Positions 1-41,756 of a DNA stretch of 64,000 nt are shown here, in pieces; within the stretch, counting starts at the first letter, position 1; every line of letters begins with the position of its first letter. The notes below the pieces were generated by a model. That model had not been told where the DNA came from, ran no database searches, and saw nothing but the letters and a program-made list of their open reading frames with translations. This DNA is from a bacterium. Its GTDB lineage: Bacteria; Lindowbacteria; 2-12-FULL-62-27. The stretch is taken from the NCBI GenBank assembly GCA_016202645.1, contig JACQOF010000097.1, positions 16,955-80,954 of the forward strand. The letters are read 5' to 3'. The position numbers and the translations under genes are program-made.

Positions 1-813
1 GTCGTGCAGCGTCTGGATGGGGTTTTTTTTGATGCCAACGGAAATTACCGGAAACAAAATCAGCCATTGAAAGACGTGTACGACCTGGCTGACCATGTGA
101 TTTTTCAGAGCGAATTCAGCCTGGAGATGGCAAGCCGGTATCTGGGGCGGCCAGGCCGGCACCGGATCATTTACAACGCCGCGGATCCGGCCGTGTTCAA
201 TCCCGATGGATCGACCCGCCGCCCCCCCTATGACCACGTTCTTCTGGCGGCGTCCCGCTGGCGTCCCCACAAACGTCTGAGAGACCTCCTGGCCGCGTTT
301 GATCATCTTCGAGACGGAAAAACGTGCCTTGTGCTTGCCGGGTCCGCCGCTGGGCTGAGTGAATTGCCCCGGCCGGGTGCGGACGTGCTGACGCTGGGGG
401 ATATTTCCCAGTTGGAACTGTCCGAGTGGATGCGCGGCGCGGACGTTTTCGTCCATCCCGCCTGGCGGGACTGGTGCCCGAATGTTGTCGTGCAGTCTCT
501 GGCCTGCGGCGTTCCCGTCGTCTGCCCGGATATGGGCGGAACGAAAGAGATTGTGGGGGAGGCCGGGCTGGTTCTGGATTCCGGAGAGACAGAGACATAC
601 GAGCCGCTGCCCCTATACGACGAATCTCAGATCGCCCGCCTTGATTCTTTGAAACTCGCGGAAGCCATCACGTCGGTCCTGGCCCGCAAAGCGGAGTATT
701 GGGTCCGGGCCGTCAGACGCACGGAGACTGTTCTTTCCATGAACCTTGCCGCGCGGTCCTATCTCGAAGTTTTCGAGCAGGCCATGCGTCGCGAGGAAGT
801 CAGCGTCGGCTGA
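1..813 (+). CDS. Glycosyltransferase, GT-B fold family 1/4, C-terminal portion (5' end outside window)
   Basis: The reading frame is open to position 1. It carries the GT1/GT4 C-terminal sugar-nucleotide binding signature FVHPAWRDWCPNVVVQSLACGVPVVCPDMGGTKEIVGEAG. Confidence 0.8.
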   Translation, partial: VVQRLDGVFFDANGNYRKQNQPLKDVYDLADHVIFQSEFSLEMASRYLGRPGRHRIIYNAADPAVFNPDGSTRRPPYDHVLLAASRWRPHKRLRDLLAAFDHLRDGKTCLVLAGSAAGLSELPRPGADVLTLGDISQLELSEWMRGADVFVHPAWRDWCPNVVVQSLACGVPVVCPDMGGTKEIVGEAGLVLDSGETETYEPLPLYDESQIARLDSLKLAEAITSVLARKAEYWVRAVRRTETVLSMNLAARSYLEVFEQAMRREEVSVG

Positions 814-833
814 TGTTTCGTAACGATTCAGAT

Positions 834-920
834 CGTCATTCCCGCGAAAGCGGGAATCCAGATTATCGCAGGGCGGACTGGATTCCCGCTTTCGCGGGAA
901 TGACGGAGAGGGCCGAATAG
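834..920. repeat. Double-hairpin palindromic intergenic repeat, copy A (HSRESGNP/IPAFAGMT-type element)
   Basis: cgtcATTCCCGCgaaaGCGGGAATccag...ctggATTCCCGCtttcGCGGGAATgacgg: two 8-bp-stem hairpins that are inverted copies of each other. Near-identical to 35375-35461, with 2 mismatches over 87 nt. Lies between two CDSs. Confidence 0.9.
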
Positions 921-925
921 TAACG

Positions 926-2125
926 ATGTTTCAGAAATTTCTGTGTCTGGTCGGGCGGCACTGGTACAATGATATTCTTCTGCGCCAGTTTCAGGCCCAC
1001 GGTCTGAATGCCCATACCTGTTCGCTTCCCGCCCCTCTTTCGGATTCACCGCCGCTCGATTCCAGCCTGCTCTATGATCTCCCACGGGATGACACCACCC
1101 CCCCGGACGCCGTCCTGGTGGACGACATGTTCTGGAACGCGTGTCTCAGGAAATTCGGCGCCCCGGCGATCCGCTCCCTCGTCCGGGATCTGTCCCGTGG
1201 CGGCGCGGTGCCGGTCGTGGCGCTGGATCACGGAGACACCCTTCAATCGAAATTCCGCTCCAGCGACGTCGGTGAATTTGACCTTATTCTCAAGGCCCAC
1301 GGCCTGCCGCGCGACCGGGACCTCATGAACTGGGAGGTTGGCGTTCGGTGGGGACTCAATCGCCGGGAAAAAATCCGGAAAATTTCCAACCCTGAATGGC
1401 GCTACAGCCCCCGACAGCTCGACAAGTTCCGTCTTTCTTTCGATCTCGGCATGGCCTACTGCGGCCGCCGGATTCACCCTCTGCCTGGATTTTTCGAACC
1501 CTTTGACGTTTTCTTTGCCGGCGCATTCAACAGCCTGAACCGTCTCGAAGGCCTGAAGCTTTGCAAGCGCCGGTTCCGGACGCTCGGGCGGCTTGTCCGT
1601 CTGGCCGCCGATCATCCGATCGTGGGTCTGGAGGAGGGCGGCGCCCGCCGCGAAACCCTGGTGTGGGACGAGATTTATGCGCGGCGGCGCAAGTTGAGCG
1701 CGGAATGGATTGATCGTCACCCGGAGCTTTTCGGCCGCCCGATTTCGTCCGGACGGTTCACGGCGATGGCAGTCTTATCCAAAATCATGCCGGCCTTTTC
1801 AGGCATCGGCGAGCTCGGTCCGCGCCACTATCAGGCTCTTTCTTTCGGAAAACTTCTCTTGTGCGAGGATCTCAGTCACGTCGAGACTCATTTTCCGTTT
1901 CGGGACGGCGAGACCTGTGTCCATGTCTCGGACCGTCTGGAGGATCTTGAAACCCGGGTCCGGGAACTGTTGACGGACGCCGCCCGGCGCAAGCGAATCG
2001 CCCGGGAGGGATTTGAGCGGTTCCGGGAATGTTATGGGGACGGTTCAAAAATGTTCCGGGACTGTTTTCTCCGGCATCTGGAAGATGCCGCCCACGTGTC
2101 CATCACCGCGGCCGCCGGTTACTAA
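926..2125 (+). CDS. Putative glycosyltransferase-like protein (CgeB / Glyco_trans_1_2-like C-terminal half)
   Basis: 399-aa ORF. The C-terminus (FGKLLLCEDLSHVETHFPFRDGETCVHVSDRLEDLETRVRELLTDAARRKRIAREGFERFRECY) resembles the C-terminal half of CgeB-type GT-B proteins. The N-terminal part is unassigned. Confidence 0.5.
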   Translation: MFQKFLCLVGRHWYNDILLRQFQAHGLNAHTCSLPAPLSDSPPLDSSLLYDLPRDDTTPPDAVLVDDMFWNACLRKFGAPAIRSLVRDLSRGGAVPVVALDHGDTLQSKFRSSDVGEFDLILKAHGLPRDRDLMNWEVGVRWGLNRREKIRKISNPEWRYSPRQLDKFRLSFDLGMAYCGRRIHPLPGFFEPFDVFFAGAFNSLNRLEGLKLCKRRFRTLGRLVRLAADHPIVGLEEGGARRETLVWDEIYARRRKLSAEWIDRHPELFGRPISSGRFTAMAVLSKIMPAFSGIGELGPRHYQALSFGKLLLCEDLSHVETHFPFRDGETCVHVSDRLEDLETRVRELLTDAARRKRIAREGFERFRECYGDGSKMFRDCFLRHLEDAAHVSITAAAGY

Positions 2126-2249: not shown

Positions 2250-2882
2250 ATGAAGGTGGATGTCAGGGATCAGCTGATTTCGCTCATTCGGAAATGGGAC
2301 GATCTCTACCGCGAATGGAGCGATCTCACGATATCCTACTGCGGCGGCGTCCACGCCAAACACCGGTTCAGCCCGAGGGAGGACTGGTTCCGCCCGTGGC
2401 TCGGCCGGGAGGACACAGTGATCGATCTTGGGTGCGCCCACGGGAAAATCCTGCATGCGCTTGCCCCCCATATCCGGCGGGGAATCGGGCTGGATCACAA
2501 TCCCGAACATATTCGGACGGCGCGGACACGCTTTCAGGCGCCGAACATCCAGTTTTACGAGGGGGAGATAGAATCGAGTCCCTGGCCGTTTGACGACCGC
2601 GCGGATGGGGTCATCCTGTCGCACGTTCTGGAACATGTCGAAGACTCGGTGGGACTTCTTCGCCGCCTGAACACCCGCCGGGTTCTGATTCTGGTGCCCG
2701 GCACGGACGATTGGATTTCACAGCTGAAACACGAACTGGGGTATGACCGGTTCCGGGACGACGACCACAAGCGCGAGTACGGCCGGGAGGATCTGATCCG
2801 GGAAGTTGAAGCGGCTGGGTTTTCCGTCAGAGACATCCGATACACGGAAACCGGAAACCTGTTTTGCGTGGCGGATCATTGA
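2250..2882 (+). CDS. Class I SAM-dependent methyltransferase
   Basis: Motif I is VIDLGCAHGK and the acidic loop is GLDHN. The ORF-track ORF begins at 2013, but its first 79 codons only translate repeat copy B. The first in-frame ATG after the repeat is at 2250 (MKVDVRDQ...). Confidence 0.75.
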   Translation: MKVDVRDQLISLIRKWDDLYREWSDLTISYCGGVHAKHRFSPREDWFRPWLGREDTVIDLGCAHGKILHALAPHIRRGIGLDHNPEHIRTARTRFQAPNIQFYEGEIESSPWPFDDRADGVILSHVLEHVEDSVGLLRRLNTRRVLILVPGTDDWISQLKHELGYDRFRDDDHKREYGREDLIREVEAAGFSVRDIRYTETGNLFCVADH

Positions 2883-2953: not shown

Positions 2954-3970
2954 TTGGAGATCTTGGTTAAAGCCATTGTTGTGGGTGGAATGGGGTTTAT
3001 CGGGAGTCATTTAACGGAGAGGCTTCTGGCGGAGGGTGTCGACGTAACGGTCCTCGATAATCTCTCCACCGGGCGCCGGTCCAATCTCGAACATCTGGAA
3101 CCTCACCCCCGTTTGAAATTTTTTGAGGTGGATGTCGCATCCTCCGAACCTCTGGAACCCCTCTTTGAGGGCGCGGACTGGGTATTTCATCTGGCCGGCC
3201 TGGCCGATTTGATTCCTTCCATCGAAAAACCCTTCGATTACTTCACCCACAACGTAACGGGAACCGTCCGGGTGCTGGAGGCGGCCAGAAATCAGGGTGT
3301 CTCCAGGCTGGTCTATGCCGCATCCTCGTCGTCGTATGGTCTCCCGGATATTTTCCCGACACCCGAAACGGCGCCCCTCCGGCCGGAACACCCCTATGCC
3401 TTCAGCAAATACCTGGGAGAACAGGCCGTTCTCCACTGGGGCAGGGTCTATCATCTGGGTGTGGTGTCTCTCCGTCTTTTCAACGTCTTCGGCCCGCGCG
3501 CCCGCACGACGGGCGCGTACGGCGCGGTGTTCGGCGTGTTTCTGGCCCAGAAACTTCGAAATCACCCTCTCACGATTGTGGGAGACGGCAATCAGACCCG
3601 TGATTTTATCTACGTGACGGACGTCGCGGAGGCGTTTGTCAGCGCCGCCCGAAGCGGCGTCCAGGGGGAAGTATTCAACGTCGGCTCGGGCGGAACCTGC
3701 TCCATTCGATATCTGGCCCAATTGATCGGAGGGCCGCGGGTGTTCGTTCCCAAGCGTCCGGGGGAACCGGATTGCACGTTCGCCGACATTTCCAAAATTC
3801 AGAACACCCTGGGTTGGAAACCGCGCGTCCCCTTTGAGGAGGGCGTCCGGCGGCTTTTGGAACATCTGGGGGACTGGAAGGACGCGCCGGTGTGGACACC
3901 CGACGCCATAGCCGGGGCCACTCGGGAATGGTTCCAGCGTCTGTCGCCGCGGATGGCGGAGGTCGGCTGA
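2954..3970 (+). CDS. NAD-dependent epimerase/dehydratase (extended SDR, UDP-sugar 4-epimerase/decarboxylase-like)
   Basis: Rossmann motif GGMGFIGSHL and catalytic YAFSKYLGE (YxxxK). The start is a non-ATG codon in the ORF track, so it is uncertain. Confidence 0.8.
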   Translation: MEILVKAIVVGGMGFIGSHLTERLLAEGVDVTVLDNLSTGRRSNLEHLEPHPRLKFFEVDVASSEPLEPLFEGADWVFHLAGLADLIPSIEKPFDYFTHNVTGTVRVLEAARNQGVSRLVYAASSSSYGLPDIFPTPETAPLRPEHPYAFSKYLGEQAVLHWGRVYHLGVVSLRLFNVFGPRARTTGAYGAVFGVFLAQKLRNHPLTIVGDGNQTRDFIYVTDVAEAFVSAARSGVQGEVFNVGSGGTCSIRYLAQLIGGPRVFVPKRPGEPDCTFADISKIQNTLGWKPRVPFEEGVRRLLEHLGDWKDAPVWTPDAIAGATREWFQRLSPRMAEVG

Positions 3971-3975
3971 ATCCC

Positions 3976-5505
3976 ATGCGATCCACTCTGGAAAAAATTC
4001 TGTCTCTGGAAGAATTAACGGAACGGCTGACGGAGGAACGCGAACAGGGGCGGCGGATCGTCCATTGCCACGGCGTATTTGATCTCCTCCATCCGGGACA
4101 TATCCATCACTTGAAATCCGCCCGTAAACTGGGAGACCTGCTCGTGGTCACGGTCACCCCCGATCCATTCGTCAACAAAGGCCCGGGTCGGCCCATTTTC
4201 CGGCAGGAACTGCGGGTGGAAACATTGTCGACCCTGGAGTATGTCGACTATGTGGCCCTGAATCTCTGGCCCACGGCCGTTGAAACCATCCGCAGGCTCA
4301 AGCCCCACATTTACGTCAAAGGAAAAGAATACGCGAATGCGGCCAGGGACGTCACGGGGAAAATCTCCGAAGAGGCCGGGGCCGTCGAGGAGGTGGGCGG
4401 CCGGATCGTGTTTACGGACGGCGAAACCTTCAGTTCCAGCCACTTGATCAACCGCTTCTTCAGCCCCTATCCGCCGGCCACGGACACGTTCCTCAGGGAG
4501 TTTCGAAAAATCCATTCGGCCGATGACGTGATCGAAAATTTGAAACGCCTGTCGGCGCTCAGGGTGATGGTGGTCGGCGAGGCCATCATTGACGAGTATT
4601 GCTACTGCAACCCGCTCGGGAAATCCCCCAAGGAAACCATCGTCGCGACGCGATTTCTTCAGGAAGAACGCTTCGCCGGCGGCGCCCTGGCGACGGCCAA
4701 CCATCTGGCAAATTTTTGCGAACGCGTCACGCTGGTCACGCCGTTCGGCCAGGACCCGAGAGACATCGATTTCGTGCGGTCGAAAATGCACCCCGGCGTG
4801 GATCTTCGGACCCTGACCACCGACAACCGCCCCACGGTGATCAAACGCCGCTATGTGGAGCCGGCTTTCATGACGAAAATGTTTGAAATCCAGTATTTGG
4901 ATGACCGTCCGATGTCGGCTGAGCTTGAGGAGGCCGCGGTATCGATTTTTGAGGAAAGGGCGGCCCAGACGGATTTGATCGTCGTCAATGATTTCGGCCA
5001 TGGATTTCTAACCGAACGGCTCCGCCGGTGGCTGGCCGGCTCTGGAAAATTTTTGGCGGTGAACGCCCAGACCAACAGCGCCAACCATGGTTTCAATCCG
5101 GTGACCAAATACGAGCGCGCGGACTACGTCTGCATCGACGAACCGGAATTACATCTGGCTTCCGGCACGCGGTACCGGGAGACCCACCATCTGGCCATGG
5201 ATTTGAAACGGAAAATGAAGGCCCATTACCTGACGGTGAGCCGGGGGCCGGAGGGATGTGTCGTGCTGAACAACCGGCCGGAAGCCGCGCGCGTCCCTGT
5301 GATGTCGACTCGCGTCATCGATCGGACCGGGGCGGGTGATGCTCTCTTTGCCGTGACATCTCCCTGCGTCTACAGGGAATTCGATCCCGTCCTCCTCGGA
5401 TTTATCGGGAATTGCGTGGGCGCCCTGGCCGTCGAGACGGTCTGCAACCGGGAGCCCATTCGGGCCGCGAATCTTTTCAAATTTATTTCCGCCCTGTTGA
5501 AATAA
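3976..5505 (+). CDS. Bifunctional cytidylyltransferase-fold nucleotidyltransferase / PfkB sugar kinase (HldE/RfaE-like, domains in reversed order)
   Basis: The N-terminus has HxGH (CHGVFDLLHPGHIHHLKSA). The C-terminal half is PfkB-like (VMVVGEAIIDEY ... DRTGAGDALFAV). I chose the ATG at 3976 (MRSTLEKIL) because it sits just after the upstream stop. Confidence 0.8.
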   Translation: MRSTLEKILSLEELTERLTEEREQGRRIVHCHGVFDLLHPGHIHHLKSARKLGDLLVVTVTPDPFVNKGPGRPIFRQELRVETLSTLEYVDYVALNLWPTAVETIRRLKPHIYVKGKEYANAARDVTGKISEEAGAVEEVGGRIVFTDGETFSSSHLINRFFSPYPPATDTFLREFRKIHSADDVIENLKRLSALRVMVVGEAIIDEYCYCNPLGKSPKETIVATRFLQEERFAGGALATANHLANFCERVTLVTPFGQDPRDIDFVRSKMHPGVDLRTLTTDNRPTVIKRRYVEPAFMTKMFEIQYLDDRPMSAELEEAAVSIFEERAAQTDLIVVNDFGHGFLTERLRRWLAGSGKFLAVNAQTNSANHGFNPVTKYERADYVCIDEPELHLASGTRYRETHHLAMDLKRKMKAHYLTVSRGPEGCVVLNNRPEAARVPVMSTRVIDRTGAGDALFAVTSPCVYREFDPVLLGFIGNCVGALAVETVCNREPIRAANLFKFISALLK

Positions 5506-5513
5506 CCCCATCC

Positions 5514-6128
5514 ATGACACCCGATTCCGCCATCCAATTTTTGAAGCGGCTGGATCAAATCCGGACGGACACCCGCGTCACTTCCCAGGGCCGGGACATC
5601 CCGCTGGCGGAGGGGTTGGGGCTTGGCGTGGATCTTCTGCGCAAGTCCCATCGGCTGGGGCACAAGCTCATGTTCATCGGAAACGGCGGAAGCGCCGCCA
5701 TCGCCAGCCATCTGACGCTCGATTTCTGGAGGGCCGCCGGATTCAACACCCTGGGGTTTAACGATCCCAGCCAGCTGACCTGCATGGCCAACGATTTCGG
5801 ATTCGAAAACGTTTTCGCCGAACCCATCCGCCGCGACGCCCGTCTCGGGGATGTTCTCGTGGCGATCAGCAGTTCCGGCAAATCGCCCAATATTCTCATC
5901 GGGACGGCCGCCGCGAAAAAAAAGGGGTGCGCGGTCATCACGTTTTCCGGATTTGAGCCGGCCAATCCATTGCGGTCCCTCGGAGATTTGAATTTTTATG
6001 TTCCTTCAGCCTCTTACGCCCTCGTCGAAATCGCCCATCTGGCGCTCCTGGGCGCCATGATGGAGGAGAGCATCGCCCGGGGGAAATCCCCGGCCGGGAG
6101 GAAAAAATCGGCCCCGGCCGTCCGATGA
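5514..6128 (+). CDS. gmhA: Phosphoheptose (sedoheptulose-7-phosphate) isomerase, SIS domain
   Basis: SIS motifs KLMFIGNGGSAAIASHLTLDF and LVAISSSGKSPNIL. Size ~200 aa. The start at 5514 follows the upstream stop, and the ORF-track N-terminal extension overlaps the previous gene. Confidence 0.8.
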   Translation: MTPDSAIQFLKRLDQIRTDTRVTSQGRDIPLAEGLGLGVDLLRKSHRLGHKLMFIGNGGSAAIASHLTLDFWRAAGFNTLGFNDPSQLTCMANDFGFENVFAEPIRRDARLGDVLVAISSSGKSPNILIGTAAAKKKGCAVITFSGFEPANPLRSLGDLNFYVPSASYALVEIAHLALLGAMMEESIARGKSPAGRKKSAPAVR

Positions 6129-7138
6129 AAAAAATCGCCATCCTGGGCGGCGCCGGCTACGTGGGTTCTGCGCTTACGCCGTATCTGCTCTCCCTCGGAT
6201 ATGCCGTCAACGTCATTGACCTCTTCTTCTATGGGGAGCGGGTCTTTGACGATATCCGCGCCCACCCGGCCCTCCGATTGATCCGCGGCGACGTCCGGGA
6301 CACGGACCTCCTGGAAAAGGAATTGAAAGGCATGGACGCCGTCGTGCATCTTGCCTGCATCTCGAACGATCCGAGTTTTGAACTCGACCCACAGCTTGGG
6401 AAATCCATCAATTATGACGCCTTCGACGGGATTTTGCGGGCGACGGTGTCCGGCGGCGCGGCGCGGTTTCTATACGCGTCAAGCTCCAGCGTCTATGGGG
6501 TAAGCGATGCGCCGGAGGTCCGGGAGGATTGCCCCTGCGCGCCGCTGACGGATTATTCAAAATACAAATGGATGTGCGAGGACCTCCTGAACCACACCGA
6601 TCTGGGTCAATGCGCTCCTGTCATTTTAAGGCCGGCCACCGTCTGCGGTTACGCCCCCCGCCTGAGACTCGACCTCATCGTCAACATCCTCGCGGCGCAG
6701 GCCCTCATCACCAAAAAAATCACCGTACACGGCGGGGAGCAACGAAGACCGAACATCCACATTCGGGACATGATCGAGGCCTACAGGGTTCTCTTGGAAG
6801 CGCCGGCCGACAAAGTGGCGGGGGAGACATTCAACGTGGGATTCGAAAACCAGACCGTCGCGGATCTTGCCGAAATGGTGCGGGCGGAAACAGGCCCGGA
6901 CGATGTGTCCATCGAAACCCTTCCGGTGATGGACAGCCGATCCTACCGCATCAATTCTGAAAAAATGACCCGGCGCCTCGGATTCCGGGCCTCCCGGACG
7001 ATTCGGGACGCCGTTCGGAGCCTCGCCGAGGCCTTGCAAAAAGGCCTCATCACGGATCCGCTGAACAATTCCCTCTATTACAACGTCCGACGGATGCGGG
7101 AAATCCGCGCCGCCGACTGGCAGCCGGTGTATGGCTGA
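6125..7138 (+). CDS. NAD-dependent epimerase/dehydratase (SDR)
   Basis: ILGGAGYVGSAL Rossmann motif and YSKYKWMCE (YxxxK). ATGA start/stop overlap with gmhA. Confidence 0.8.
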   Translation: MKKIAILGGAGYVGSALTPYLLSLGYAVNVIDLFFYGERVFDDIRAHPALRLIRGDVRDTDLLEKELKGMDAVVHLACISNDPSFELDPQLGKSINYDAFDGILRATVSGGAARFLYASSSSVYGVSDAPEVREDCPCAPLTDYSKYKWMCEDLLNHTDLGQCAPVILRPATVCGYAPRLRLDLIVNILAAQALITKKITVHGGEQRRPNIHIRDMIEAYRVLLEAPADKVAGETFNVGFENQTVADLAEMVRAETGPDDVSIETLPVMDSRSYRINSEKMTRRLGFRASRTIRDAVRSLAEALQKGLITDPLNNSLYYNVRRMREIRAADWQPVYG

Positions 7139-7153
7139 AGCCGCGCCGCGATT

Positions 7154-10447: not shown

Positions 10448-10589
10448 TTCAAACCCTCTGACTCCGGGATCCTGTCCACCCATCCCATCCTCCTCTCTCA
10501 CACTGCGTGAATGGCGGACATTGCACCTGATCGTGGATAGCAAGTCAAGAATTCGATTCGCGTCATGGGGTCGTGGACGGCTTATGAGA

Positions 10590-34438: not shown

Positions 34439-35338
34439 TTATGATTTCACCGCCTCGACGACAAAAGCCGAGCAGAGGAACAAGCCCCGCCAATCCGAGG
34501 ACTCCTGTTCGAGTCGAAATCCCTCCTGGCGGAACAGACCAGGATCCACGGTTTCCAAAAAAGGCATTGCCGGATGATAGTGATACCAAAGCAGGCGAAT
34601 ATCCCGAAACCCCGTTTTTTTAAAGAGATTCTGAACTTCAAAGGGATTATGAAATCGGGACAGGATGGCGTCGTATCCCGGCGCATCCGGCCGGCGGCTC
34701 TCCTCCACGCGACTGCGCACGGGCGGCTGATCCATCCGCAATTTCGGTTCAATTTCCGCGCGGACCAACTCTTTCATCCTCGGATCCACATCCCGCAGGA
34801 GGTCATCCAGAATAAACGAGAGTGTCAGGCGGTTAAAGGTGAAAAGCGAAAAAAATTTGTTTCGGAATTCGACCAGGATGGTTCCGCCGGGCTTGAGGCA
34901 GACGGCCATATTTTTCAATACCTCTTCGTCATGCTCGACATGGGGCATCACCCCCAGAGCCATGAGACCGTCAAAAAGGCCCCCGCGCAGGCAGTACGCA
35001 TACGAAACGGGATCCTGTATATCCGCCCGAAAAATATGCCCTGGATCCAGACCCTCTTTTCGCATGTTTTCCTTCGCCCGTTCGACCATCTCGTGGGAAA
35101 TATCAAATCCCCATCCTTCAATCCCGGTTTTCGCCAAAGTGACCAGAGGAGTCCCCTCTCCCACACCGACATCCAGAACTCTTCCGACATTTTTTGAAAT
35201 AAAAGAGTTCACCACCAACCGCAGACGGAAATAGTTGGCGGGATAAAACCCCAAAGTTTTTAGATTTTGCTTTTCGTATTGCTCGTGGTATTTGTCGGAA
35301 ATCGCGTCGTAATGATTTTCGATATCTTTTTTTCCCAT
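34439..35338 (-). CDS. Class I SAM-dependent methyltransferase
   Basis: Motif I VLDVGVGEGTP. The ORF-track ORF extends to 35488, but the first 50 codons translate repeat copy C (SRESGNP...IPAFAGMT). Start placed at MGKKDIENHYD. Confidence 0.75.
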   Translation of the reverse strand: MGKKDIENHYDAISDKYHEQYEKQNLKTLGFYPANYFRLRLVVNSFISKNVGRVLDVGVGEGTPLVTLAKTGIEGWGFDISHEMVERAKENMRKEGLDPGHIFRADIQDPVSYAYCLRGGLFDGLMALGVMPHVEHDEEVLKNMAVCLKPGGTILVEFRNKFFSLFTFNRLTLSFILDDLLRDVDPRMKELVRAEIEPKLRMDQPPVRSRVEESRRPDAPGYDAILSRFHNPFEVQNLFKKTGFRDIRLLWYHYHPAMPFLETVDPGLFRQEGFRLEQESSDWRGLFLCSAFVVEAVKS

Positions 35339-35374
35339 GATAGAACCCCGCTCCTCATTATTCCGCCGCCAGGT

Positions 35375-35461
35375 CGTCATTCCCGCGAAAGCGGGAATCC
35401 AGATTATCGCAGTGCGGACTGGATTCCCGCTTTCGCGGGAATGACGGAGAGGGCTGAATAG
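35375..35461. repeat. Double-hairpin palindromic intergenic repeat, copy C
   Basis: 87 nt, 2 mismatches relative to copy A (834-920). Lies in the divergent intergenic region. Confidence 0.9.
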
Positions 35462-35488
35462 CAACCGACATTTAACATTTGAAGTCAT

Positions 35489-36538
35489 ATGAATTCAAGC
35501 TTTCAACTCTTGCATCTTTTATGGTGGAATATTAGTCTCCGCGGACTGCCTGAATATATTGGCGGTGAAAGATGGAGGGGGTTGAGAATGTCTGACGTCA
35601 AAGAGCGCAGAAACATGAATACGGGAACCATTTTACTCGACTTATATTCAATCGAAGACCAGGGGGAGGCAGTAGAACAGGCGTCCCGCCTGTCCCTCAC
35701 ACCCCGGACCGCCGTCCCCGAAAAAGTGTTGTTCCGCCGGATCGAGGGGAGGGATGCGTACGACACCTGGATCCTGCAGGAGTTTTTCAAAGAGATCCTG
35801 ATCTACAAGCGTCTTCTTTCCGGGGGGAGATTTCCCCTGTCCAAAATACCGCGGAATGAGAAAAATCTGCTGGTGTATCTTCTTTTGGCGGTCACCAGCC
35901 CCGGCGCGGCGATTTTGGAGCTGGGGTCGTCTCTGAATGAGCTGATCGACGGCTTGGAGGTCGTGGACCGTTATTTTGTCGACCGGGAATCTTCGGTCCG
36001 CTGCCCGGACATCCCGAAACGGCGGTTTGGAGGCATCGAGATTTCCGAGTTTTTGTCGTTTGCGGGCCGGGTGCTTCATCCCGGGTATGACATTCGGATA
36101 TATCCCCACGCCGGAAAAGTCGACCAACCGTATGGAATCCTCTATGATCGAAACGTCAGTTCGGACGCGTTCACAACGTCGGAAGAACTGGCCGCGTTCA
36201 TCCGGCGCGCCGACGCGGCGATCCTCAATATCTTTGTCTCCCGGGACGAGACATTTCAGACACCGCGCCTCGGCCGGGCCATTACCTATTTTCATCTGAA
36301 CTCGCTTTTGGACGGCCTTGACAAACCGTTGTTTCACCTCTTCGGCAGGAAATCCCCCGGCGGCCCGGTCAACTTTGATCTCAGCCAGGGGAGAGACGTG
36401 GTGGAGGGATTTTTCCTGTATGGGAGCGAGGAGACCGCGCGCCGGTGGCACGCGGCTGCGCAGGTGGATGCAGAGGTAAGGGCTTATTTTCAGCGGAAGA
36501 ATATTTCCCTGAAGCCCGCACAGGCGCTGTTTGAATGA
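35489..36538 (+). CDS. Hypothetical protein (possible Rossmann/methyltransferase-like)
   Basis: AAILELGSSLNELIDG is weakly motif-I-like. ATGA overlap with the downstream sulfotransferase. Start uncertain (ATGs at 35489, 35588 and 35615). Confidence 0.4.
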   Translation: MNSSFQLLHLLWWNISLRGLPEYIGGERWRGLRMSDVKERRNMNTGTILLDLYSIEDQGEAVEQASRLSLTPRTAVPEKVLFRRIEGRDAYDTWILQEFFKEILIYKRLLSGGRFPLSKIPRNEKNLLVYLLLAVTSPGAAILELGSSLNELIDGLEVVDRYFVDRESSVRCPDIPKRRFGGIEISEFLSFAGRVLHPGYDIRIYPHAGKVDQPYGILYDRNVSSDAFTTSEELAAFIRRADAAILNIFVSRDETFQTPRLGRAITYFHLNSLLDGLDKPLFHLFGRKSPGGPVNFDLSQGRDVVEGFFLYGSEETARRWHAAAQVDAEVRAYFQRKNISLKPAQALFE

Positions 36539-38001
36539 AGACCGCGATTTCGCGCACGCCTCAACACCGGTCGGATCCGCGCGCCGGGTTTCTCAAAATG
36601 GCGGCGCTGACCTGTGTCGGACGCGCCGGAACGAAACTCGTCCAAAGCTATCTGGACGGCCACCCGAATCTTCGGATGATCCCGGGATACCCCCTGATGT
36701 ATCTCTATCCCCACTGGGAGACATGGCGGCGGGAATACGGGAATCGGCTGACTTGGCACAGGGTGATCGACCTGTTTTGCGAAAAACACGCCTCCGTCAT
36801 CGACACCCGCAGGCTCAATGACCTCCTTGGGTTGGACCGCCTGGGGCCAACCCGGCAGGATTTTCTGGCCATCAACGAGTCCGGATTTCGAAAGCGGTTG
36901 CTTGAAATTCTGTCCGGCAGCCCGATTTGCCGAAAAACATTTCTGCTGGCCGTCCATGAAGCTTACGCCGAATCAGCCGGCGCGCCGTGCGACCGGCATA
37001 CCGTTGTGCTCTATCATATCCATGAGCCGGACTTCGTCCGGGATCTGGTTGATGATTTTCCGGAGATGAAACTCATCGTGATGGTCCGTGAGCCCAAGGC
37101 ATCTTTCGCGTCGACCAAGGTCGCGGAGGATTTTGTGGACCAAGCCAAGCTCAATCCAACGGATTGCATGATCCTTTCCGGCAAGAACGTCGTTCAGGCA
37201 TGTTACTACCAGCAGAAGGTCATGGAGTCGCTCGGCGACATTGTCCGGGACCATCCCGGGGTCGATCTACTGGCAGTTCGCCACGATGACCTGCACCTGC
37301 GCCGCGACCAGACCCTCACTGCTATTTTGCGGTGGCTTGGGATCCCCGAACACCCGGCCATGCGCGTAAGCACCTTCGGAGGGAAACTCTGGTGGGGCGA
37401 TGCGACCAACCGGACGCCGGTGAACGGGTACAACGCGGATGCCCTGTCAGACAAGTGGCGCAAGACACTGAGTTGCGGCGACGGGTTTCTGATCGAAGGT
37501 TTACAATATGAACTCTGCCGGGCGGCCGGATATGAGCCGGCGTACTATCGGAAGGATGACCGTCATAACCGGATCCGCCTGATCCTGAGGGTCCTGCTTC
37601 CCATGCGGGAGGAATGGAGGCTGTTGGGCCGGGCACTCGACCCACGACAGCATATGGCCTTTATTTGGCATGCATGGGCGGAATCGGCGTCGAGCCGCAT
37701 CGATTATTCGTGGAGCGCGACGTACCGTTACAAACGGGCCTATCAAAGATGGGGTCTGTGGCGGCGCCGATGGGAGGAAGGGTTGCTTTCGGCAAGCCCC
37801 AAACGGCCGGCTCGAATCGTCTTCGTTATCGTCCGTTATCTGAGGTTTCTGGGCGCTGCCCTGCGGGCGCCGCTATGGGTTCTTCACAGATACCGGATGA
37901 ATCTGGGGACACTGCGCTACCGTTTGACAGGCAAATCCTATTGTCCTTTGGTGCTGCGGCCGGAGACGGTGGAATCAGTCGAGCAAGTGCCGATATTTTA
38001 G
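36535..38001 (+). CDS. Sulfotransferase family protein (paralog 2)
   Basis: LTCVGRAGTKLVQSYLDGHPNL, VMVREPKASFAS, RHDDLHLRRDQTLTAILRWLGIP and GGKLWWGD. Collinear with 22036-23220. Confidence 0.7.
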   Translation: MKTAISRTPQHRSDPRAGFLKMAALTCVGRAGTKLVQSYLDGHPNLRMIPGYPLMYLYPHWETWRREYGNRLTWHRVIDLFCEKHASVIDTRRLNDLLGLDRLGPTRQDFLAINESGFRKRLLEILSGSPICRKTFLLAVHEAYAESAGAPCDRHTVVLYHIHEPDFVRDLVDDFPEMKLIVMVREPKASFASTKVAEDFVDQAKLNPTDCMILSGKNVVQACYYQQKVMESLGDIVRDHPGVDLLAVRHDDLHLRRDQTLTAILRWLGIPEHPAMRVSTFGGKLWWGDATNRTPVNGYNADALSDKWRKTLSCGDGFLIEGLQYELCRAAGYEPAYYRKDDRHNRIRLILRVLLPMREEWRLLGRALDPRQHMAFIWHAWAESASSRIDYSWSATYRYKRAYQRWGLWRRRWEEGLLSASPKRPARIVFVIVRYLRFLGAALRAPLWVLHRYRMNLGTLRYRLTGKSYCPLVLRPETVESVEQVPIF

Positions 38002-39168
38002 GAGAAAGGCCGTGGCGACGCGTGAGGGATGGCGTCGGATCGGGTGCGTTTCAGGAAAGAGGCGGCGGTACTTTTCCTGCAGAAGTTCGTCCTCGGCCCG
38101 GTCTGCCCAGGCGCCGTCCACGCGGCTGATTAATTCGACGGAGGCATCCAGAATTTCATCCGGGCCATTCTCGATCACCTCGATCCCGGCGCGGTTGTAC
38201 GAATCAGAATCGGTCCACTGGTGCATCCCACATGCGATCACCTCCCCAAACCGGAGAATCCGGCCCCCACGCATATCCCGGTAAAGTTTCGGTATAAACA
38301 GGCTGTGGCGATGCGCCGCGGCGATCGCCAATGGCGTCTGATTGGCCAGAAGATAGGGAACATTGAAGACTGCGGCAAGGTTGAGGAGGCCGGCGGTATT
38401 GCCGATGAAGCATTTGCAATGGGCGACCAGGTAAATGTCGCCGAAATCCGAACGGTGACGCGTGGCGTAGTCAATAACACGGGGATGAATGGCGCCGATC
38501 TCTGTTTCAACCATCGACCCCATGCGCAGCGCCCATACGCCCGATTCAGCAGCCCACAGGGCCGCCGGAATATAGTTTTCGATTGTGCAGTCCCGGAAGT
38601 CATGGTACCGCCACCCGCCGATGCGCCCGGAGGGCAGCGCCGCGTCCAAGTACGCGCGGTCGCGTGCATGAAAACAGACGAAGGGCGCGCCGTCCGGGAC
38701 ACCCATTTCCGCCAGCAGGGCCCGACCGCGGCGATGTTCCGCCGGAGTGAACGTGAGAGAAGGATGTTGGGTATTCCAGACAGACCAATCCTGCCAGCCG
38801 GAAGGTTTGAGGTCGATCCAGATGTCGTCCTCACTCAGCCATGACCGGAGGGCATGATAGATCCGCAGGGCGATGCGGCCCTGAAAGACACGGATCCGTC
38901 GTTTGATCATACGGAGAACCTGCCGGTTGGTCGCTGAGCCGCAGAAGAAGATCTCAACACCGGCCGAATGGGACTCAGGCTGACTCCGTTTTTTCCTCAG
39001 GAAATACTCCGTGTTGGCGATCAGGTGTCCGAAGCGCTCGGAATTGATGCGTCCGAAGCGGATGAGGTTTTGTTTGGGAAGGAGATGAACGAGAAGCCAA
39101 ACCGGCCAGATCAATAAAAATTCCAGCGCCCTTTGGGCGCGCCCCCCCTTGAAACTACAGGCGGCCAA
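37975..39168 (-). CDS. TIGR04372-like putative glycosyltransferase (paralog 2)
   Basis: WRYHDFRDCTIENYIPAALWAAESGVWALRMGSM..HPRVIDYATRHRSDFGDIYLVAHCKCFIGNTAGL. The 3' end overlaps the convergent sulfotransferase by 27 nt. Confidence 0.6.
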   Translation of the reverse strand: MAACSFKGGRAQRALEFLLIWPVWLLVHLLPKQNLIRFGRINSERFGHLIANTEYFLRKKRSQPESHSAGVEIFFCGSATNRQVLRMIKRRIRVFQGRIALRIYHALRSWLSEDDIWIDLKPSGWQDWSVWNTQHPSLTFTPAEHRRGRALLAEMGVPDGAPFVCFHARDRAYLDAALPSGRIGGWRYHDFRDCTIENYIPAALWAAESGVWALRMGSMVETEIGAIHPRVIDYATRHRSDFGDIYLVAHCKCFIGNTAGLLNLAAVFNVPYLLANQTPLAIAAAHRHSLFIPKLYRDMRGGRILRFGEVIACGMHQWTDSDSYNRAGIEVIENGPDEILDASVELISRVDGAWADRAEDELLQEKYRRLFPETHPIRRHPSRVATAFLLKYRHLLD

Positions 39169-40786
39169 GAAGCCTCACAGAAAGTTGCCGCCAGACCAGG
39201 TAGACCAGTCCGTGCAAGCCAAAATAAATTCCGGACAGAACGAGAATGGGTTTCAAGTACACGGCGGAAAGCGGGACCGTCAGCATTTGTTTGTAGATCG
39301 GGGCGGAGAAGTACGCGATGGTGCCCGCGATGTAGAGGGAGCCGAGGATCATGAAGAGAAGGCCGCCCGTCGATCCCGCCGCGCGCTCGAGACTGCTCTG
39401 GCTCCGCGGGGGCATGACCAGCGCCGCCCAGAGGGCAAGGCCGACGATGGCGAGAGTCTGGACGGCGTTGACGGCGTGGGAAAACACCGCAAAAAATGTT
39501 GAGACTCCGGTCTGGCTGTTGGCGATGAAGAGGAGGGACTGGGAGAGGACGAGCAGGAGCAGGGCGTGGGTCCAGAATTTCGCGCGGAGGATGACGCGCG
39601 GGCGGATGGGGAGCGTCTTCAAAAGATACGCGCTCTCGCCCTCGAGCGAAAAGGTCGGATAGACGAACCGGACCGACACCGCGACGATGAGAAGGCCTGA
39701 CACGGTGAGGTTGACGAAGGAGACGAAGTTGATGAGGTAGGCCTGGTCGAGCGGCAGGTCCCGGATGTTGATGATGTGGATGAAGATGAGCGTCAGGAGC
39801 ACCAGCATCTGGGACCATTCGGCGATGTCCCGGTGGAGGAATTTGAAATCCTTGAGGCACAGCGTCAGCGCCGGGCTGCGGCGGGGCCACGCCGCCGAAA
39901 ATTTTATCAGCGTGGCAACCTTGACCTGCGCGTCGGCCTGGGACCGCCAGCCCCGTAGAAACAGCGGATAAGACAGCGTCATGAGAATCACGAGACCCAA
40001 GCTGTTGGCAAGCCACAGGATGCCGAGGTTGAGCCACGCGCCGCCGATATCCCCCCGCGCCATGCACGCGATGGCCTGGGCCGAAAGCGTGTCCGGCGTA
40101 TAGGGATGCGTGGGGACTTCGATCGATTTGAGAATCGCGCCCATCTGGAACGTGTCGAACTCCATCGAAAAGAGGACGCCGATGTCGATCCGGCCCGCGA
40201 AGTCGATCGTCACGTAGGAACCGAGGAGCGCGAGCACGAGCGCGAGGGTTTTGAGGCGATGTCTCGGGAGGGTTGCGTAGGTGGCGCAGAGCAATGTCAC
40301 GCCGAGCGCCGTCGGCAGAACCGTGAGGCCGAGGAGGGCCAGCACCGCGACGACAATGTAATCCCAGCCGAGAATGAAACTGCGGCCCAGGCCGACGGCG
40401 ATGGGCGTTCCGAAGAGAAACACCATCCAGCCGGTTGCCGCCATGCACTCGATGAACTGGACCGCGAAGAGTTTCCGGGGCGGGATCGGCAGGGAAAAAA
40501 GCAGGTCGGATTCCGGGTTTGAATAGAGGATCAGGGCGCCGGACACCAGACTTGAAAACGTCAGCATGATGCAAAACGACAGGTGCGCCATCGCCACGAC
40601 CCGGAACACAAGGGCCGTTCCGATCTCGGGCGTGAGGCGCAGGGTGTCGAAGAGCTGTGTGGAGACCCGGGACGTGAGGACCACGAAGAACGCAAACAGC
40701 GCCACGACCACCATGTTGCGGCGGCCTTCCGGCGACGCTTTGAATGTCAGGAGTCTTTTGAGAAGCCGCCACCGGAGTTGCCACAT
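39155..40786 (-). CDS. Polytopic membrane protein with internal duplication (putative ABC-exporter-type permease, no ATPase nearby)
   Basis: About 12 hydrophobic segments. The motif DLLFSLPIPPRKLFAVQF in the first half recurs as AYLLKTLPIRPRVILRAKFW in the second half. Preferred over the out-of-frame P/R/G-rich ORF 39111-40784. Confidence 0.6.
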   Translation of the reverse strand: MWQLRWRLLKRLLTFKASPEGRRNMVVVALFAFFVVLTSRVSTQLFDTLRLTPEIGTALVFRVVAMAHLSFCIMLTFSSLVSGALILYSNPESDLLFSLPIPPRKLFAVQFIECMAATGWMVFLFGTPIAVGLGRSFILGWDYIVVAVLALLGLTVLPTALGVTLLCATYATLPRHRLKTLALVLALLGSYVTIDFAGRIDIGVLFSMEFDTFQMGAILKSIEVPTHPYTPDTLSAQAIACMARGDIGGAWLNLGILWLANSLGLVILMTLSYPLFLRGWRSQADAQVKVATLIKFSAAWPRRSPALTLCLKDFKFLHRDIAEWSQMLVLLTLIFIHIINIRDLPLDQAYLINFVSFVNLTVSGLLIVAVSVRFVYPTFSLEGESAYLLKTLPIRPRVILRAKFWTHALLLLVLSQSLLFIANSQTGVSTFFAVFSHAVNAVQTLAIVGLALWAALVMPPRSQSSLERAAGSTGGLLFMILGSLYIAGTIAYFSAPIYKQMLTVPLSAVYLKPILVLSGIYFGLHGLVYLVWRQLSVRLLGRL

Positions 40787-40799
40787 GCGGTGAGTCTGC

Positions 40800-41756
40800 T
40801 TAGAGGGGGGTGTCTATGGCGTTGGCGAAGCGGTTCAATGAAGTCAGGAAGCGTGTTTTCAATGTTCGACCGCCGTGAGTTGGACCCCGGTAGGACTCGT
40901 GGGGGTTGACGATTCGGCGAAATCCCGAATAGTCGCATTTGGCGCATAACGGAATCGCCGCGCGGTCGCCGGCCAGCAATCTTCGCCGGATCTCCCGGAA
41001 CCGGTCGCAGAACCAGATGTCCTTGAGACTTTGCGCCCTCACGCTGCCAATTCGTTCGGAGAAATAAAAATCATGTTCGCACAGTCCCACGACGCCTTCC
41101 GCGCTGATCATGATTTTTTCAAACGGCCTCTGGCAAAACGATTTTAAGGGCCGCGACAGGACGGAACCGTTGGGACTGGAGCCGGCGCGATTGTTTAATT
41201 GCGCCGTCAGTTTCCGGCGGTTCAGCCGGACCCGGCCGGGAAAGTCCGGCGCCACCACATCCATAAAGCTCCGAATATTCGGAAACACCGTATCGGTATC
41301 GGAGTAGTTGTTGATTTCCAGAATATCCAGGCCGTTTTCCAGGAGAAGCCGGCCAAGATCATGGGTCAGAGACTTGCCGTTGGTCATGACATGCAATGAG
41401 GCGTTCGAGCAGACCCGCCGGGCCATCGCGACCCAGCGCGGCAGGCGTTTGTCGAGAAGGGGTTCGGTATTGATAAAAAAACAGAGCCGTCCTGTGTACT
41501 TCAGGCCGCCCAGCTCGTCGATGATTTTTTGAAATATGTCTTCCGGCATGGATACATCGGGTCTGGTGTCGAACTGCGCCGCCGCCGCGCAAAAAGAGCA
41601 CGTCCCATTACACTTCTTGCGAAGTTCCAATTCCACGGTATTGAACAGGGCCGGCCGGTTGGCGTCGAAGTGTGCCCGGCCGACCGCCAGCGAAAGTTTT
41701 TCTTTGATCAGGCGTTTCATGCGCCGTTTGATGGTCTGAAGCATGGGTCTGAGCAT
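40800..41756 (-). CDS. Radical SAM protein with SPASM/twitch-like C-terminus
   Basis: ELELRKKCNGTCSFCAAA (CxxxCxxC). C-terminal CQRPFEKIMISAEGVVGLCEHD...IGSV...IW...PLCAKCDY. Confidence 0.8.
   Translation of the reverse strand: MLRPMLQTIKRRMKRLIKEKLSLAVGRAHFDANRPALFNTVELELRKKCNGTCSFCAAAAQFDTRPDVSMPEDIFQKIIDELGGLKYTGRLCFFINTEPLLDKRLPRWVAMARRVCSNASLHVMTNGKSLTHDLGRLLLENGLDILEINNYSDTDTVFPNIRSFMDVVAPDFPGRVRLNRRKLTAQLNNRAGSSPNGSVLSRPLKSFCQRPFEKIMISAEGVVGLCEHDFYFSERIGSVRAQSLKDIWFCDRFREIRRRLLAGDRAAIPLCAKCDYSGFRRIVNPHESYRGPTHGGRTLKTRFLTSLNRFANAIDTPL

Follow-up and report, generated by a model that had tools for sequence, protein, structure and literature searches.

A putative Maf-type protein-glycosylation island with sulfation, heptose-type and pseudo-radical-SAM genes in an uncultured bacterium

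Known Maf islands and the locus in outline

Islands that combine a Maf (motility-associated-factor) glycosyltransferase with nonulosonate synthesis are already well known, as are sulfated bacterial polysaccharides, and uncultured bacteria commonly carry large glycan clusters that are uncharacterised. Methyl-type decorations of the nonulosonate and its extension by further sugars are known from Campylobacter and Aeromonas. Sulfated glycans in protein glycosylation have so far been tied to archaea and eukaryotes. Here we describe a dense run of 34 consecutive genes at positions 1-41756 of a 64,000-nucleotide stretch of a Lindowbacteria assembly (GCA_016202645.1, contig JACQOF010000097.1, positions 16,955 to 80,954 of the forward strand), hereafter called the window. 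Nearly all of these genes belong to sugar-nucleotide synthesis, sulfate activation, methyl transfer, glycosyl transfer or the radical S-adenosylmethionine (SAM) superfamily. We consider it moderately probable that they form a cytoplasmic, Maf-type protein-glycosylation island, put together from modules found repeatedly in uncultured bacteria.

The island resembles the Maf flagellin islands of Campylobacter jejuni, Helicobacter pylori, Aeromonas and Magnetospirillum magneticum AMB-1 in three respects. It has a full-length Maf-type transferase; it clusters a NeuB-family synthase, a cytidine monophosphate (CMP)-nonulosonate synthetase, a PseG-like hydrolase and DegT-family aminotransferases; and its enzymes are soluble, with no lipid-carrier machinery beside them. 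Unlike those islands, the window has no flagellin or flagellar gene nearby and neither PseB nor PseH, and its Maf has very low identity to characterised members of the family. It also adds the synthesis of 3′-phosphoadenosine 5′-phosphosulfate (PAPS), two sulfotransferases, a heptose module, B12-binding radical-SAM enzymes and pseudo-radical-SAM proteins, none of which, to our knowledge and in the literature searched, has been described in a Maf island. What is new here is the combination of a Maf/nonulosonate island with PAPS synthesis, sulfotransferases, a heptose module and B12-binding radical-SAM enzymes, together with a rare pseudo-radical-SAM fusion family.

Genes were taken as the longest non-overlapping open reading frames (ORFs) of the window and scanned against Pfam (island and right flank) and NCBIfam, with Pfam gathering scores and NCBIfam curated or equivalog cut-offs as thresholds. 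Comparisons with other loci and with structures used PDB sequence search, AlphaFold (AF2) models, Foldseek, hhalign and tblastn. A preliminary description, made from the letters of the sequence, had listed the gene content and predicted a sulfated, methylated glycoconjugate containing nonulosonate and heptose. Nearly every assignment in its list was recovered by Pfam or NCBIfam, and the NeuB, PseG-like, Sat, CysC and sulfotransferase assignments, whose failure it had named as a refutation, all survived hidden Markov model searches. It was also right about tight packing: at least eight junctions overlap by 4 bp or 1 bp (ATGA/TGATG), and the remaining intergenic gaps are mostly shorter than 25 bp across the 34 genes. 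Its view that no characterised system has this chemistry agrees with the literature searched on sulfated flagellin glycans and on sulfotransferases in such clusters, where none was found.

The reading frame of the leftmost gene is open from base 1, and the island therefore continues past the window edge. An exact-sequence look-up of the leftmost genes matched only the 94,928-bp source contig. The same Maf gene occurs on two short Logan contigs (runs SRR12113385 and SRR12113390), both of which end within the window. The island proteins are singletons at 90% identity clustering.

Enzyme modules of the island

The Maf-type assignment is upheld both by a PF01973 match above threshold (Table 1) and by a full-length structural match. 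At the level of sequence, the Magnetospirillum Maf 5MU5 was matched at E 1e-6 and only around the GAGPS motif, and the PseD domain model of NCBIfam gave 42 bits. The AF2 model (predicted local distance difference test score, pLDDT, 77) finds the same M. magneticum protein as by far its top structural match (E 3.2e-22, nearly full length), and homologues carry the name motility associated factor glycosyltransferase. Judged by its model, the protein is a genuine, very divergent Maf-type transferase. A second candidate, the putative protein at 32262-33149, carries short GSGPS and GVDL motifs; its MptE-like match is sub-threshold and spans 24 residues, hhalign against the Maf alignment gave a probability of 0.8%, and no second Maf-like transferase is claimed.

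The GT-B glycosyltransferases named in the preliminary description correspond to the two genes at the left edge (1-813 and 926-2125). Absent from its list were two glycosyltransferases of family TIGR04372, which are paralogues with 45% identity; a homologue adjoins a pseudo-radical-SAM gene in Lindowbacteria, and a literature search on the family returned nothing relevant. Predicted transmembrane (TM) segments are mostly missing from the island's transferases. Among the island ORFs scanned, Pfam detected no phosphoglycosyl transferase, no flippase or polymerase, no oligosaccharyltransferase and no ABC ATPase, and we agree with the earlier statement that Wzx/Wzy, a Wzm/Wzt ATPase and flagellin are missing from the scanned ORFs. 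Soluble transferases without lipid-carrier genes fit cytoplasmic protein glycosylation.

The nonulosonate module consists of two DegT aminotransferases, a NeuB/PseI-family synthase and a PseF-PseG-like fusion, all with confirmed domains. One aminotransferase has PseC as its top match at 251.8 bits, under the cut-off of 423.5; the other, more divergent, scores 113 bits against 420 for the LegC family and 100 bits for PseC. PseF (106.5 bits against 205.7) and PseG (113.9 bits against 153.55) are the top matches of the respective halves of the fusion, whose closest solved relative is the CMP-N-acetylneuraminate (Neu5Ac) synthetase 6IFD (E 2.3e-25). The synthase reaches 359 bits with NeuB_NnaB, the NeuB/LegI model (cut-off 399.65), and 274.4 bits with PseI (cut-off 340.25), sub-cut-off in both cases, and in the PDB it is about equidistant from SpsE/NeuB (~178 bits) and PseI (161 bits). 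The earlier label 'pseudaminate-type' is not established, since PseB and PseH are missing, the synthase has a better score with the NeuB/LegI model than with the PseI model, and the PseF and PseG scores lie below their cut-offs. On these scores the pathway is a divergent diamino-nonulosonate route whose stereochemistry (pseudaminate, legionaminate or other) they do not fix.

The sulfation genes of the earlier list all stand: Sat and CysC exceed their curated cut-offs, the CysQ-like phosphatase is present, and both sulfotransferases, which are 29% identical to each other, pass the gathering score. From their domain content, Sat and CysC form a local PAPS factory, and the sulfation genes are physically placed between the nonulosonate, heptose and transferase genes. 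Sat and CysC share an operon (cysC-sat-pk) with a short pyruvate kinase that the earlier list had missed. This last gene of the operon, joined like the others by 4-bp overlaps, covers positions 3-339 of the 476 in profile TIGR01064 and has no C-terminal domain. Its coupling to sat and cysC suggests dedicated adenosine triphosphate (ATP) regeneration, or a phosphoenolpyruvate/pyruvate link, for PAPS synthesis. The phosphatase scores 117 bits against 229 for CysQ (TIGR01331) and 86 bits for HisN, and its stop overlaps the start of sulfotransferase A; its sequence makes it a probable 3′-phosphoadenosine 5′-phosphate (PAP) phosphatase, or possibly a sugar-bisphosphate phosphatase. Sulfotransferase B is translationally coupled, through an ATGA overlap, to the uncharacterised gene preceding it.

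The assignment of a heptose pathway fared less evenly. GmhA-like and HldE-like genes are present, and the three short-chain dehydrogenases/reductases (SDRs) listed earlier are confirmed. The heptose label itself is weaker, given scores well below equivalog cut-offs, a reversed HldE and the lack of GmhB. The GmhA-like isomerase scores 82.2 bits with gmhA (TIGR00441) against a cut-off of 209. The HldE-like enzyme reaches 102.5 bits (cut-off 181.5) with rfaE domain II and 97.2 bits (cut-off 345) with domain I, and its domain order is reversed, the nucleotidyltransferase being N-terminal and the PfkB kinase C-terminal. Compared with the adenosine diphosphate (ADP)-heptose pathway (GmhA/HldE/GmhB/HldD) and the 6-deoxyheptose enzymes of Campylobacter and Yersinia, the island shares a SIS-domain isomerase and a kinase/nucleotidyltransferase followed by 4,6-dehydratase-like and epimerase/reductase-like SDRs, in one co-directional run at 3976-8146. 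It differs from them in its sub-equivalog scores, in the reversed domains and in the absence of a GmhB-type phosphatase of the HAD family from the window. Indirect backing for the label comes from related loci, which pair the isomerase family with a PfkB kinase, a GmhB-like HAD phosphatase and a transaldolase. Of the SDRs, the first (2963-3970) stays under every NCBIfam cut-off (GalE 172, LegB 148, PseB 30.7 bits), and the third (7157-8146) scores 192 bits with deoxythymidine diphosphate-glucose 4,6-dehydratase against a cut-off of 365.

Four class-I SAM methyltransferases were confirmed out of the 'at least five' proposed earlier; a fifth was not found. The two B12-binding radical-SAM proteins are as described, each with B12-binding and Radical_SAM domains and a CxxxCxxC motif. 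Their domains make both probable methyltransferases. Membership of the KedN5 family is not indicated, at 159 and 193 bits against a cut-off of 700. Enzyme B has an alternative start at 32046, which gives the 684-residue product on record, and its homologues (35-49% identity) lie beside a pseudo-radical-SAM gene (locus L010) and beside sulfotransferase genes (L015). The single canonical radical-SAM/SPASM protein proposed earlier is the last gene of the island; its motif is CNGTCSFC at residue 49, and NCBIfam gives it weak maturase-type matches only.

Two further proteins of about 580 residues had been described as radical-SAM/SPASM-like without the cysteine triad, and this is confirmed. These pseudo-radical-SAM paralogues, 49% identical, have a cytidylyltransferase-like N-terminal fold, a cysteine-less radical-SAM-like barrel and a C-terminal SPASM/twitch-like region with four cysteines. 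In the alignment, SAVNDxPxIYSP replaces the cysteine loop, while GLGEPLQ and the four C-terminal cysteines are retained. The AF2 model of paralogue A (mean pLDDT 73) delimits an N-terminal domain of ~260 residues, for which Foldseek returned the Leptospira cytidylyltransferase 6OEW at the top (E 2.8e-7), as well as CMP-Neu5Ac synthetase and IspD. The basic residues of what we take to be the canonical cytidylyltransferase N-terminal motif are not conserved in the pseudo-radical-SAM clade. The deposited product of paralogue B (P0048) has 397 residues; the 578-residue ORF aligns end to end with paralogue A and the homologues, and the deposited gene call is probably truncated N-terminally.

The family is rare: of 1.84 billion cluster representatives searched with a profile, 18 matched at E <= 1e-30, the closest being from Candidatus Lindowbacteria (42-46% identity). 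In every recovered locus the gene sits in a nonulosonate or sugar cluster, next to NeuB, a TIGR04372 glycosyltransferase, the 179-residue protein discussed below, a DUF4910 protein or a B12-binding radical-SAM gene, the last often divergently oriented. A wider superfamily (P0099-P0139) of 540-600 residues likewise fuses a nucleotidyltransferase-like N-terminus to a radical-SAM/SPASM body. Many of its members keep CxxxCxxC, P0105, P0110 and P0139 being among those without it, a distribution that suggests independent and repeated loss of the SAM-cleaving cluster. The described families TIGR04321 (spiro-SPASM) and TIGR04347 (pseudo-SAM/SPASM) also join a radical-SAM-like barrel to a SPASM-type C-terminus, and the former is the top NCBIfam match of both paralogues. 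The paralogues differ from it in scoring 78.1 and 95.9 bits against its cut-off of 250, which makes them relatives and not members. No function for either family was found in the literature searched.

Having no CxxxCxxC, the pseudo-radical-SAM proteins are predicted to be incapable of canonical SAM cleavage. Their probable role is either to bind nucleotide sugars as partners of the nonulosonate module or of a B12-binding radical-SAM enzyme, or to act as enzymes that use the remaining Fe-S cluster. They offer a clear example of a radical-SAM scaffold that has shed its catalytic cluster and is still under selection within one pathway. Next to paralogue A lies a 179-residue protein (8143-8682) whose homologues (33-36% identity) occur less than 2 kb from a pseudo-radical-SAM gene in four loci (L007, L008, L009 and L011). 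Its identification as an RmlC-like epimerase was rejected as unproven, with no support from Pfam or the PDB.

Related loci and competing readings

The closest Maf and pseudo-radical-SAM homologues are ~45% identical and come from metagenome-assembled genomes (MAGs) of Candidatus Lindowbacteria, which is reported to be the phylum closest to Spirochaetes (bioRxiv 10.1101/2025.07.04.663154). The Maf genes of these and related MAGs (L003/L006 and L004/L005) share a neighbourhood of M42 peptidase, CBM9-like, Maf and VanZ-like genes, with a MotA/MotB pair ~3 kb upstream of Maf in L003. The relatives' nonulosonate cluster (GCA_001784175.1, contig MFPR01000004, 420-461 kb) resembles the island in two pseudo-radical-SAM paralogues (42-46% identity), NeuB, a TIGR04372 glycosyltransferase (43%), a homologue of the 179-residue protein (34%), cytidylyltransferases and a B12-binding radical-SAM gene. 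It differs in that tblastn of the window proteins (E <= 1e-4) found no match to Sat, CysC, the sulfotransferases or the heptose module in these 41 kb, and in that Maf lies on another contig, beside MotAB. This cluster is experimentally uncharacterised.

Homologues of sulfotransferase A (42-48% identity) adjoin an APS (adenosine 5′-phosphosulfate) kinase and sugar genes in three further loci. One of them, L016, carries in a row a GmhA-like gene (42% identical to the island's), a PfkB gene (34% to the kinase half of the HldE-like enzyme), homologues of the third (47%) and second (40%) SDRs, APS kinase and a sulfotransferase (48%). Another, L015, holds a B12-binding radical-SAM gene (35% to enzyme B), three sulfotransferases, APS kinase, DegT, SIS, HAD and transaldolase genes, and SDRs matching the second (48%) and first (58%) of the island. 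The third, L017, from an Omnitrophica MAG (GCA_023143685.1), has a sulfotransferase, APS kinase, a TIGR04372 glycosyltransferase, B12-binding radical-SAM and radical-SAM/SPASM genes, a cytidylyltransferase and NeuB. These loci thus share with the island its sulfotransferase family, APS kinase, heptose-type genes and homologues of its three SDRs (40-58%). They differ from it in that the 20-kb stretches show no Maf, Sat, pyruvate kinase or pseudo-radical-SAM gene; they too are uncharacterised. Because the linkage of sulfotransferase and sugar genes recurs in unrelated uncultured bacteria, the coupling is more than an accident of the source contig. By this gene context, sulfation belongs functionally with these sugar pathways and is linked most closely to the heptose/SDR genes, and the gene combination is a recurrent, uncharacterised theme of candidate-phylum bacteria and not a unique one.

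If the island is a Maf-type glycosylation system, its sugars would be built and tailored in the cytoplasm. A CMP-activated nonulosonate would be modified and then transferred by Maf to Ser/Thr of a secreted filament protein, for which flagellin is the likeliest candidate by analogy. Other soluble glycosyltransferases would extend the glycan with a heptose-derived sugar, and the two sulfotransferases would transfer sulfate from PAPS produced by the island's own enzymes. Since this sulfotransferase family directly adjoins the same heptose/SDR genes in other loci, the sulfate would most probably go to the heptose-derived unit. The CysQ-like phosphatase would clear PAP, and pyruvate kinase would regenerate ATP for the two ATP-consuming steps of PAPS synthesis. 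The pseudo-radical-SAM fusions would serve the nonulosonate module, as nucleotide-sugar-binding partners or as enzymes of the remaining Fe-S cluster.

Several observations weigh against this scheme. Flagellin as the target is taken by analogy, from nothing other than the role of the Maf family in studied bacteria. Among the ORFs scanned in the 64 kb, Pfam recognised no flagellar domain, and a crude search for the flagellin N-terminal motif turned up nothing in the window or in any of the recovered loci. Within 10 kb of the relatives' Maf there are neither sugar-biosynthesis genes nor flagellin, so its synteny neither supports nor excludes a flagellin target. PseB is missing among the SDRs (top score ~30.8 bits against a cut-off of 407.75, with weak Polysacc_synt_2 matches), no scanned island ORF has a GNAT/acetyltransferase domain that could mark PseH, and the window scans returned no GmhB/HAD phosphatase. 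Most pathway enzymes fall below equivalog cut-offs, which makes the sugars named here putative. The 12-TM protein and the adjacent CsgG-like lipoprotein could indicate polymer export. The genes lie in ~10 transcription units on alternating strands, and in Lindowbacteria Maf stands apart from the nonulosonate cluster, which is itself without sulfation genes. Hence the island is a mosaic of modules conserved separately elsewhere, and more than one product is possible. The single sulfated, methylated nonulosonate/heptose product proposed earlier is accordingly borne out in its gene functions, whereas its unity is an assumption.

The same features lend themselves to other explanations. A surface-polysaccharide locus, comparable to lipopolysaccharide O-antigen or capsule loci such as Leptospira rfb, would make a sulfated, methylated nonulosonate/heptose polymer, its initiation and export genes lying outside the window or their part being taken by the 12-TM protein and the CsgG-like lipoprotein. 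Such a locus would account for the five or six glycosyltransferases, a large number if the product is a simple flagellin glycan, and for a 12-TM PF16949 protein co-oriented with a glycosyltransferase and a radical-SAM gene and adjacent to a CsgG-family lipoprotein. The island is cut at the left window edge, where further genes could sit; an ABC ATPase stands at the end of L017; and sulfotransferases are documented in O-chain loci, for example in Alteromonas (PMC3542563). We nonetheless regard a polysaccharide locus as unlikely: the scanned ORFs of the 42 kb include no gene for a phosphoglycosyl transferase and none of the Wzx, Wzy, Wzm/Wzt, KpsMT or WaaL type, a full-length Maf-type transferase is present, and most of the transferases are without predicted TM segments. 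That the cluster makes a small secreted glycoside or aminoglycoside-like natural product is highly improbable. Aminoglycoside and enediyne-sugar pathways typically contain KedN5/GenK-type B12-binding radical-SAM enzymes, twitch/SPASM radical-SAM enzymes, DegT, SDRs, methyltransferases and a membrane protein, but NeuB, the CMP-synthetase/PseG-like fusion and Maf are hallmarks of glycoconjugates, the KedN5 scores are far too low, and no aglycone, inositol-cyclase, resistance or regulator gene was detected.

A further alternative is a glycan hot spot, in which independent sugar pathways have gathered in a variable region and yield separate products, for example a Maf/nonulosonate protein glycan, a separate sulfated heptose glycan and other methylated sugars, with no single glycoconjugate. 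The dispersal of Maf, the nonulosonate cluster and any sulfation genes in Lindowbacteria, the stand-alone heptose-sulfation module of L016 and the ~10 strand switches agree with it. So do the paralogue pairs (pseudo-radical-SAM, B12-binding radical-SAM, TIGR04372 glycosyltransferase and sulfotransferase), which suggest accretion, and the GC content, ~0.58-0.60 in the window, which dips at 30-36 kb (it is ~0.52 at 43-46.5 kb). Yet the modules are interleaved: the aminotransferases and the NeuB operon flank the PAPS genes, the second sulfotransferase sits 13 kb off beside a glycosyltransferase, and Maf lies within the heptose/radical-SAM part. L017 and L015, moreover, also combine sulfation with NeuB, cytidylyltransferase, DegT and B12-binding radical-SAM genes. 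On this evidence a hot spot seems improbable to us.

Returning to the Maf-type glycosylation island, a bolder version can be offered tentatively, as rather doubtful. The product of the island would then be the first bacterial protein glycan, on flagellin, to carry sulfate: a Maf-attached, C-/O-methylated diamino-nonulosonate extended by a sulfated heptose-derived sugar, with the pseudo-radical-SAM protein as a new nonulosonate-dedicated component. That component could be a CMP-sugar-binding partner of a B12-binding radical-SAM enzyme or an Fe-S enzyme with non-SAM chemistry, and may be confined to the Lindowbacteria-related lineage as distant kin of spirochaete spiro-SPASM. Should the predicted glycosylation island be borne out, known bacterial protein glycosylation would extend to sulfated, radical-SAM-modified nonulosonate/heptose glycans. 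Two modules recurrent in uncultured phyla, one of heptose genes with APS kinase and sulfotransferase and the other of nonulosonate synthase with pseudo-radical-SAM, the 179-residue protein and a TIGR04372 glycosyltransferase, offer a handle on several families without known function and enzymes for making modified sialic-acid-like sugars.

Gene table, right flank and repeats

Table 1. Predicted genes of the island by position in the window (scores in bits; thresholds follow 'vs'; aa, amino acids)
Coordinates	Strand	Predicted product	Matches and motifs
1-813	+	GT4-family glycosyltransferase, C-terminal part only	Glyco_trans_1_4 65.7; Glycos_transf_1 55.9
926-2125	+	Soluble Glyco_trans_1_2 glycosyltransferase-like, 399 aa	PF13524 30.8 vs gathering 25; gene call on record
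2250-2882	+	Class-I SAM methyltransferase, 210 aa	Methyltransf_23/25/11; product on record fixes start 2250
2963-3970	+	SDR epimerase/dehydratase, GalE/LegB-like, 335 aa on record	Epimerase 206.6
3976-5505	+	HldE-like bifunctional enzyme	CTP_transf_like 61.4; PfkB 48.6
5514-6128	+	GmhA-like SIS-domain sugar-phosphate isomerase	SIS_2 48.9
6125-7138	+	SDR epimerase/reductase	Epimerase 128.7
7157-8146	+	SDR resembling nucleoside diphosphate-sugar 4,6-dehydratase	GDP_Man_Dehyd 165.7
8143-8682	+	179-aa protein, hydrophobic C-terminal segment	no Pfam, NCBIfam or PDB match
8732-10483	-	Pseudo-radical-SAM paralogue A	Radical_SAM 36.7; SPASM 26.9; no CxxxCxxC
10590-12410	-	Maf-type (motility-associated-factor) glycosyltransferase, 606 aa	MptE-like PF01973 112.8 vs gathering 34.6
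12562-14658	+	B12-binding radical-SAM enzyme A (class B)	B12-binding 35.9; Radical_SAM 40.6; CPFTCTFC at residue 210
14675-15898	+	TIGR04372-family glycosyltransferase A	TIGR04372 218.4 vs cut-off 45
15895-17070	+	Class-I SAM methyltransferase	Methyltransf_23 46.3
17089-18258	+	DegT-family sugar aminotransferase, LegC-like, divergent	DegT_DnrJ_EryC1 159.5
18221-19390	-	DegT-family sugar aminotransferase, PseC-like	DegT_DnrJ_EryC1 355.7
19498-21234	+	Pseudo-radical-SAM paralogue B, 578-aa ORF	Radical_SAM 33.7; SPASM 29.3; no CxxxCxxC
21167-22036	+	CysQ-like inositol-monophosphatase-family phosphatase	Inositol_P 128.8
22036-23220	+	Sulfotransferase A	Sulfotransfer_3 50.7 vs 27
23226-24275	-	Short pyruvate kinase, barrel only, 349 aa	PK barrel 261; TIGR01064 327 vs 306
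24272-25357	-	ATP sulfurylase (Sat)	ATP-sulfurylase 287.5 + PUA_2; NF003166 447.5 vs 387
25354-25881	-	APS kinase (CysC)	APS_kinase 128.2; NF004041 156.2 vs 127
26024-27169	+	Class-I SAM methyltransferase, N-terminal extension	Methyltransf_23 55.9
27177-28898	-	Fusion of CMP-nonulosonate synthetase (N-terminal) and PseG-like nucleotide-sugar hydrolase (C-terminal)	CTP_transf_3 61.7; Glyco_tran_28_C 26
28921-29982	-	NeuB-family nonulosonate synthase	NeuB 272; SAF 60.9
29992-32139	-	B12-binding radical-SAM enzyme B (class B)	Radical_SAM 59.5; B12-binding 26.8; CPFTCSFC at residue 214
32262-33149	+	Putative protein, 295 aa, short GSGPS and GVDL motifs	MptE-like 21.8, below 34.6 gathering, over 24 residues
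33154-34431	-	DUF4910/DUF2172 aminopeptidase-like protein, winged helix	DUF4910 291.8; DUF2172 113.9; HTH_47 74.1
34439-35380	-	Class-I SAM methyltransferase, start 35380 or 35338	Methyltransf_25 54.5
35588-36538	+	Uncharacterised protein, ~316 aa	no Pfam/NCBIfam match
36535-38001	+	Sulfotransferase B, 488 aa	Sulfotransfer_3 33.5 vs 27
37975-39168	-	TIGR04372-family glycosyltransferase B	TIGR04372 186.3 vs cut-off 45
39155-40786	-	12-TM membrane protein, PF16949 ('putative ABC')	ABC_tran_2 230.7; 12 hydrophobic segments
40800-41756	-	Canonical radical-SAM/SPASM (twitch-like) enzyme, 318 aa, last island gene	SPASM 43.4; Radical_SAM 33.7

Two genes of the island were not listed in the preliminary description. 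The DUF4910/DUF2172 protein is 71% identical to homologues in L008 (9950-11236) and L009 (8901-10193), on unrelated metagenome contigs, with neighbours at ~45%, which points to unusually strong conservation or recent transfer. The 12-TM protein overlaps the downstream glycosyltransferase gene, lies 13 bp from the upstream radical-SAM gene and has no partner ATPase in the window. An alternative frame at 39111-40784 has no domains and was rejected, the overlapping 39155-40786 being taken as the real gene.

The right border drawn earlier at 41756 stands, since a housekeeping block starts at 46.9 kb (truA, pgpA, pgsA, rodZ, ftsK, pnp, ribF, truB, nrnA, rbfA, infB, nusA and rimP). Five genes lie between (41743-46565): a CsgG-family lipoprotein, an aspartyl-protease-like protein, an OlsE-like fatty-acid hydroxylase, an HTTM plus DCC1-like membrane protein and one uncharacterised protein. 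The CsgG-like gene (41743-42756) is divergent from the last island gene, and their starts overlap. The window contains no tRNA gene and, at gathering score, no Rfam match to a riboswitch or other RNA; consensus scans for promoters and terminators gave matches at or under shuffle expectation.

A palindromic element of ~96 nt, resembling repetitive extragenic palindromes (REP) or miniature inverted-repeat transposable elements (MITE), occurs in four copies at 829-924, 2150-2239, 35370-35465 and 51932-52003. Its sequence is GTCATTCCCGCGAAAGCGGGAATCCAG ... CTGGATTCCCGCTTTCGCGGGAATGAC, and two copies are 96% identical. All copies are intergenic, one of them outside the island between ftsK and pnp, and there are 8 occurrences of the core 14-mer where 0.08 would be expected. 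The element translates to an 'IPAKAGIQ' artefact that inflates three ORFs, including those at 2250-2882 and 34439-35380; products on record set the starts of the first methyltransferase and the first SDR at 2250 and 2963.

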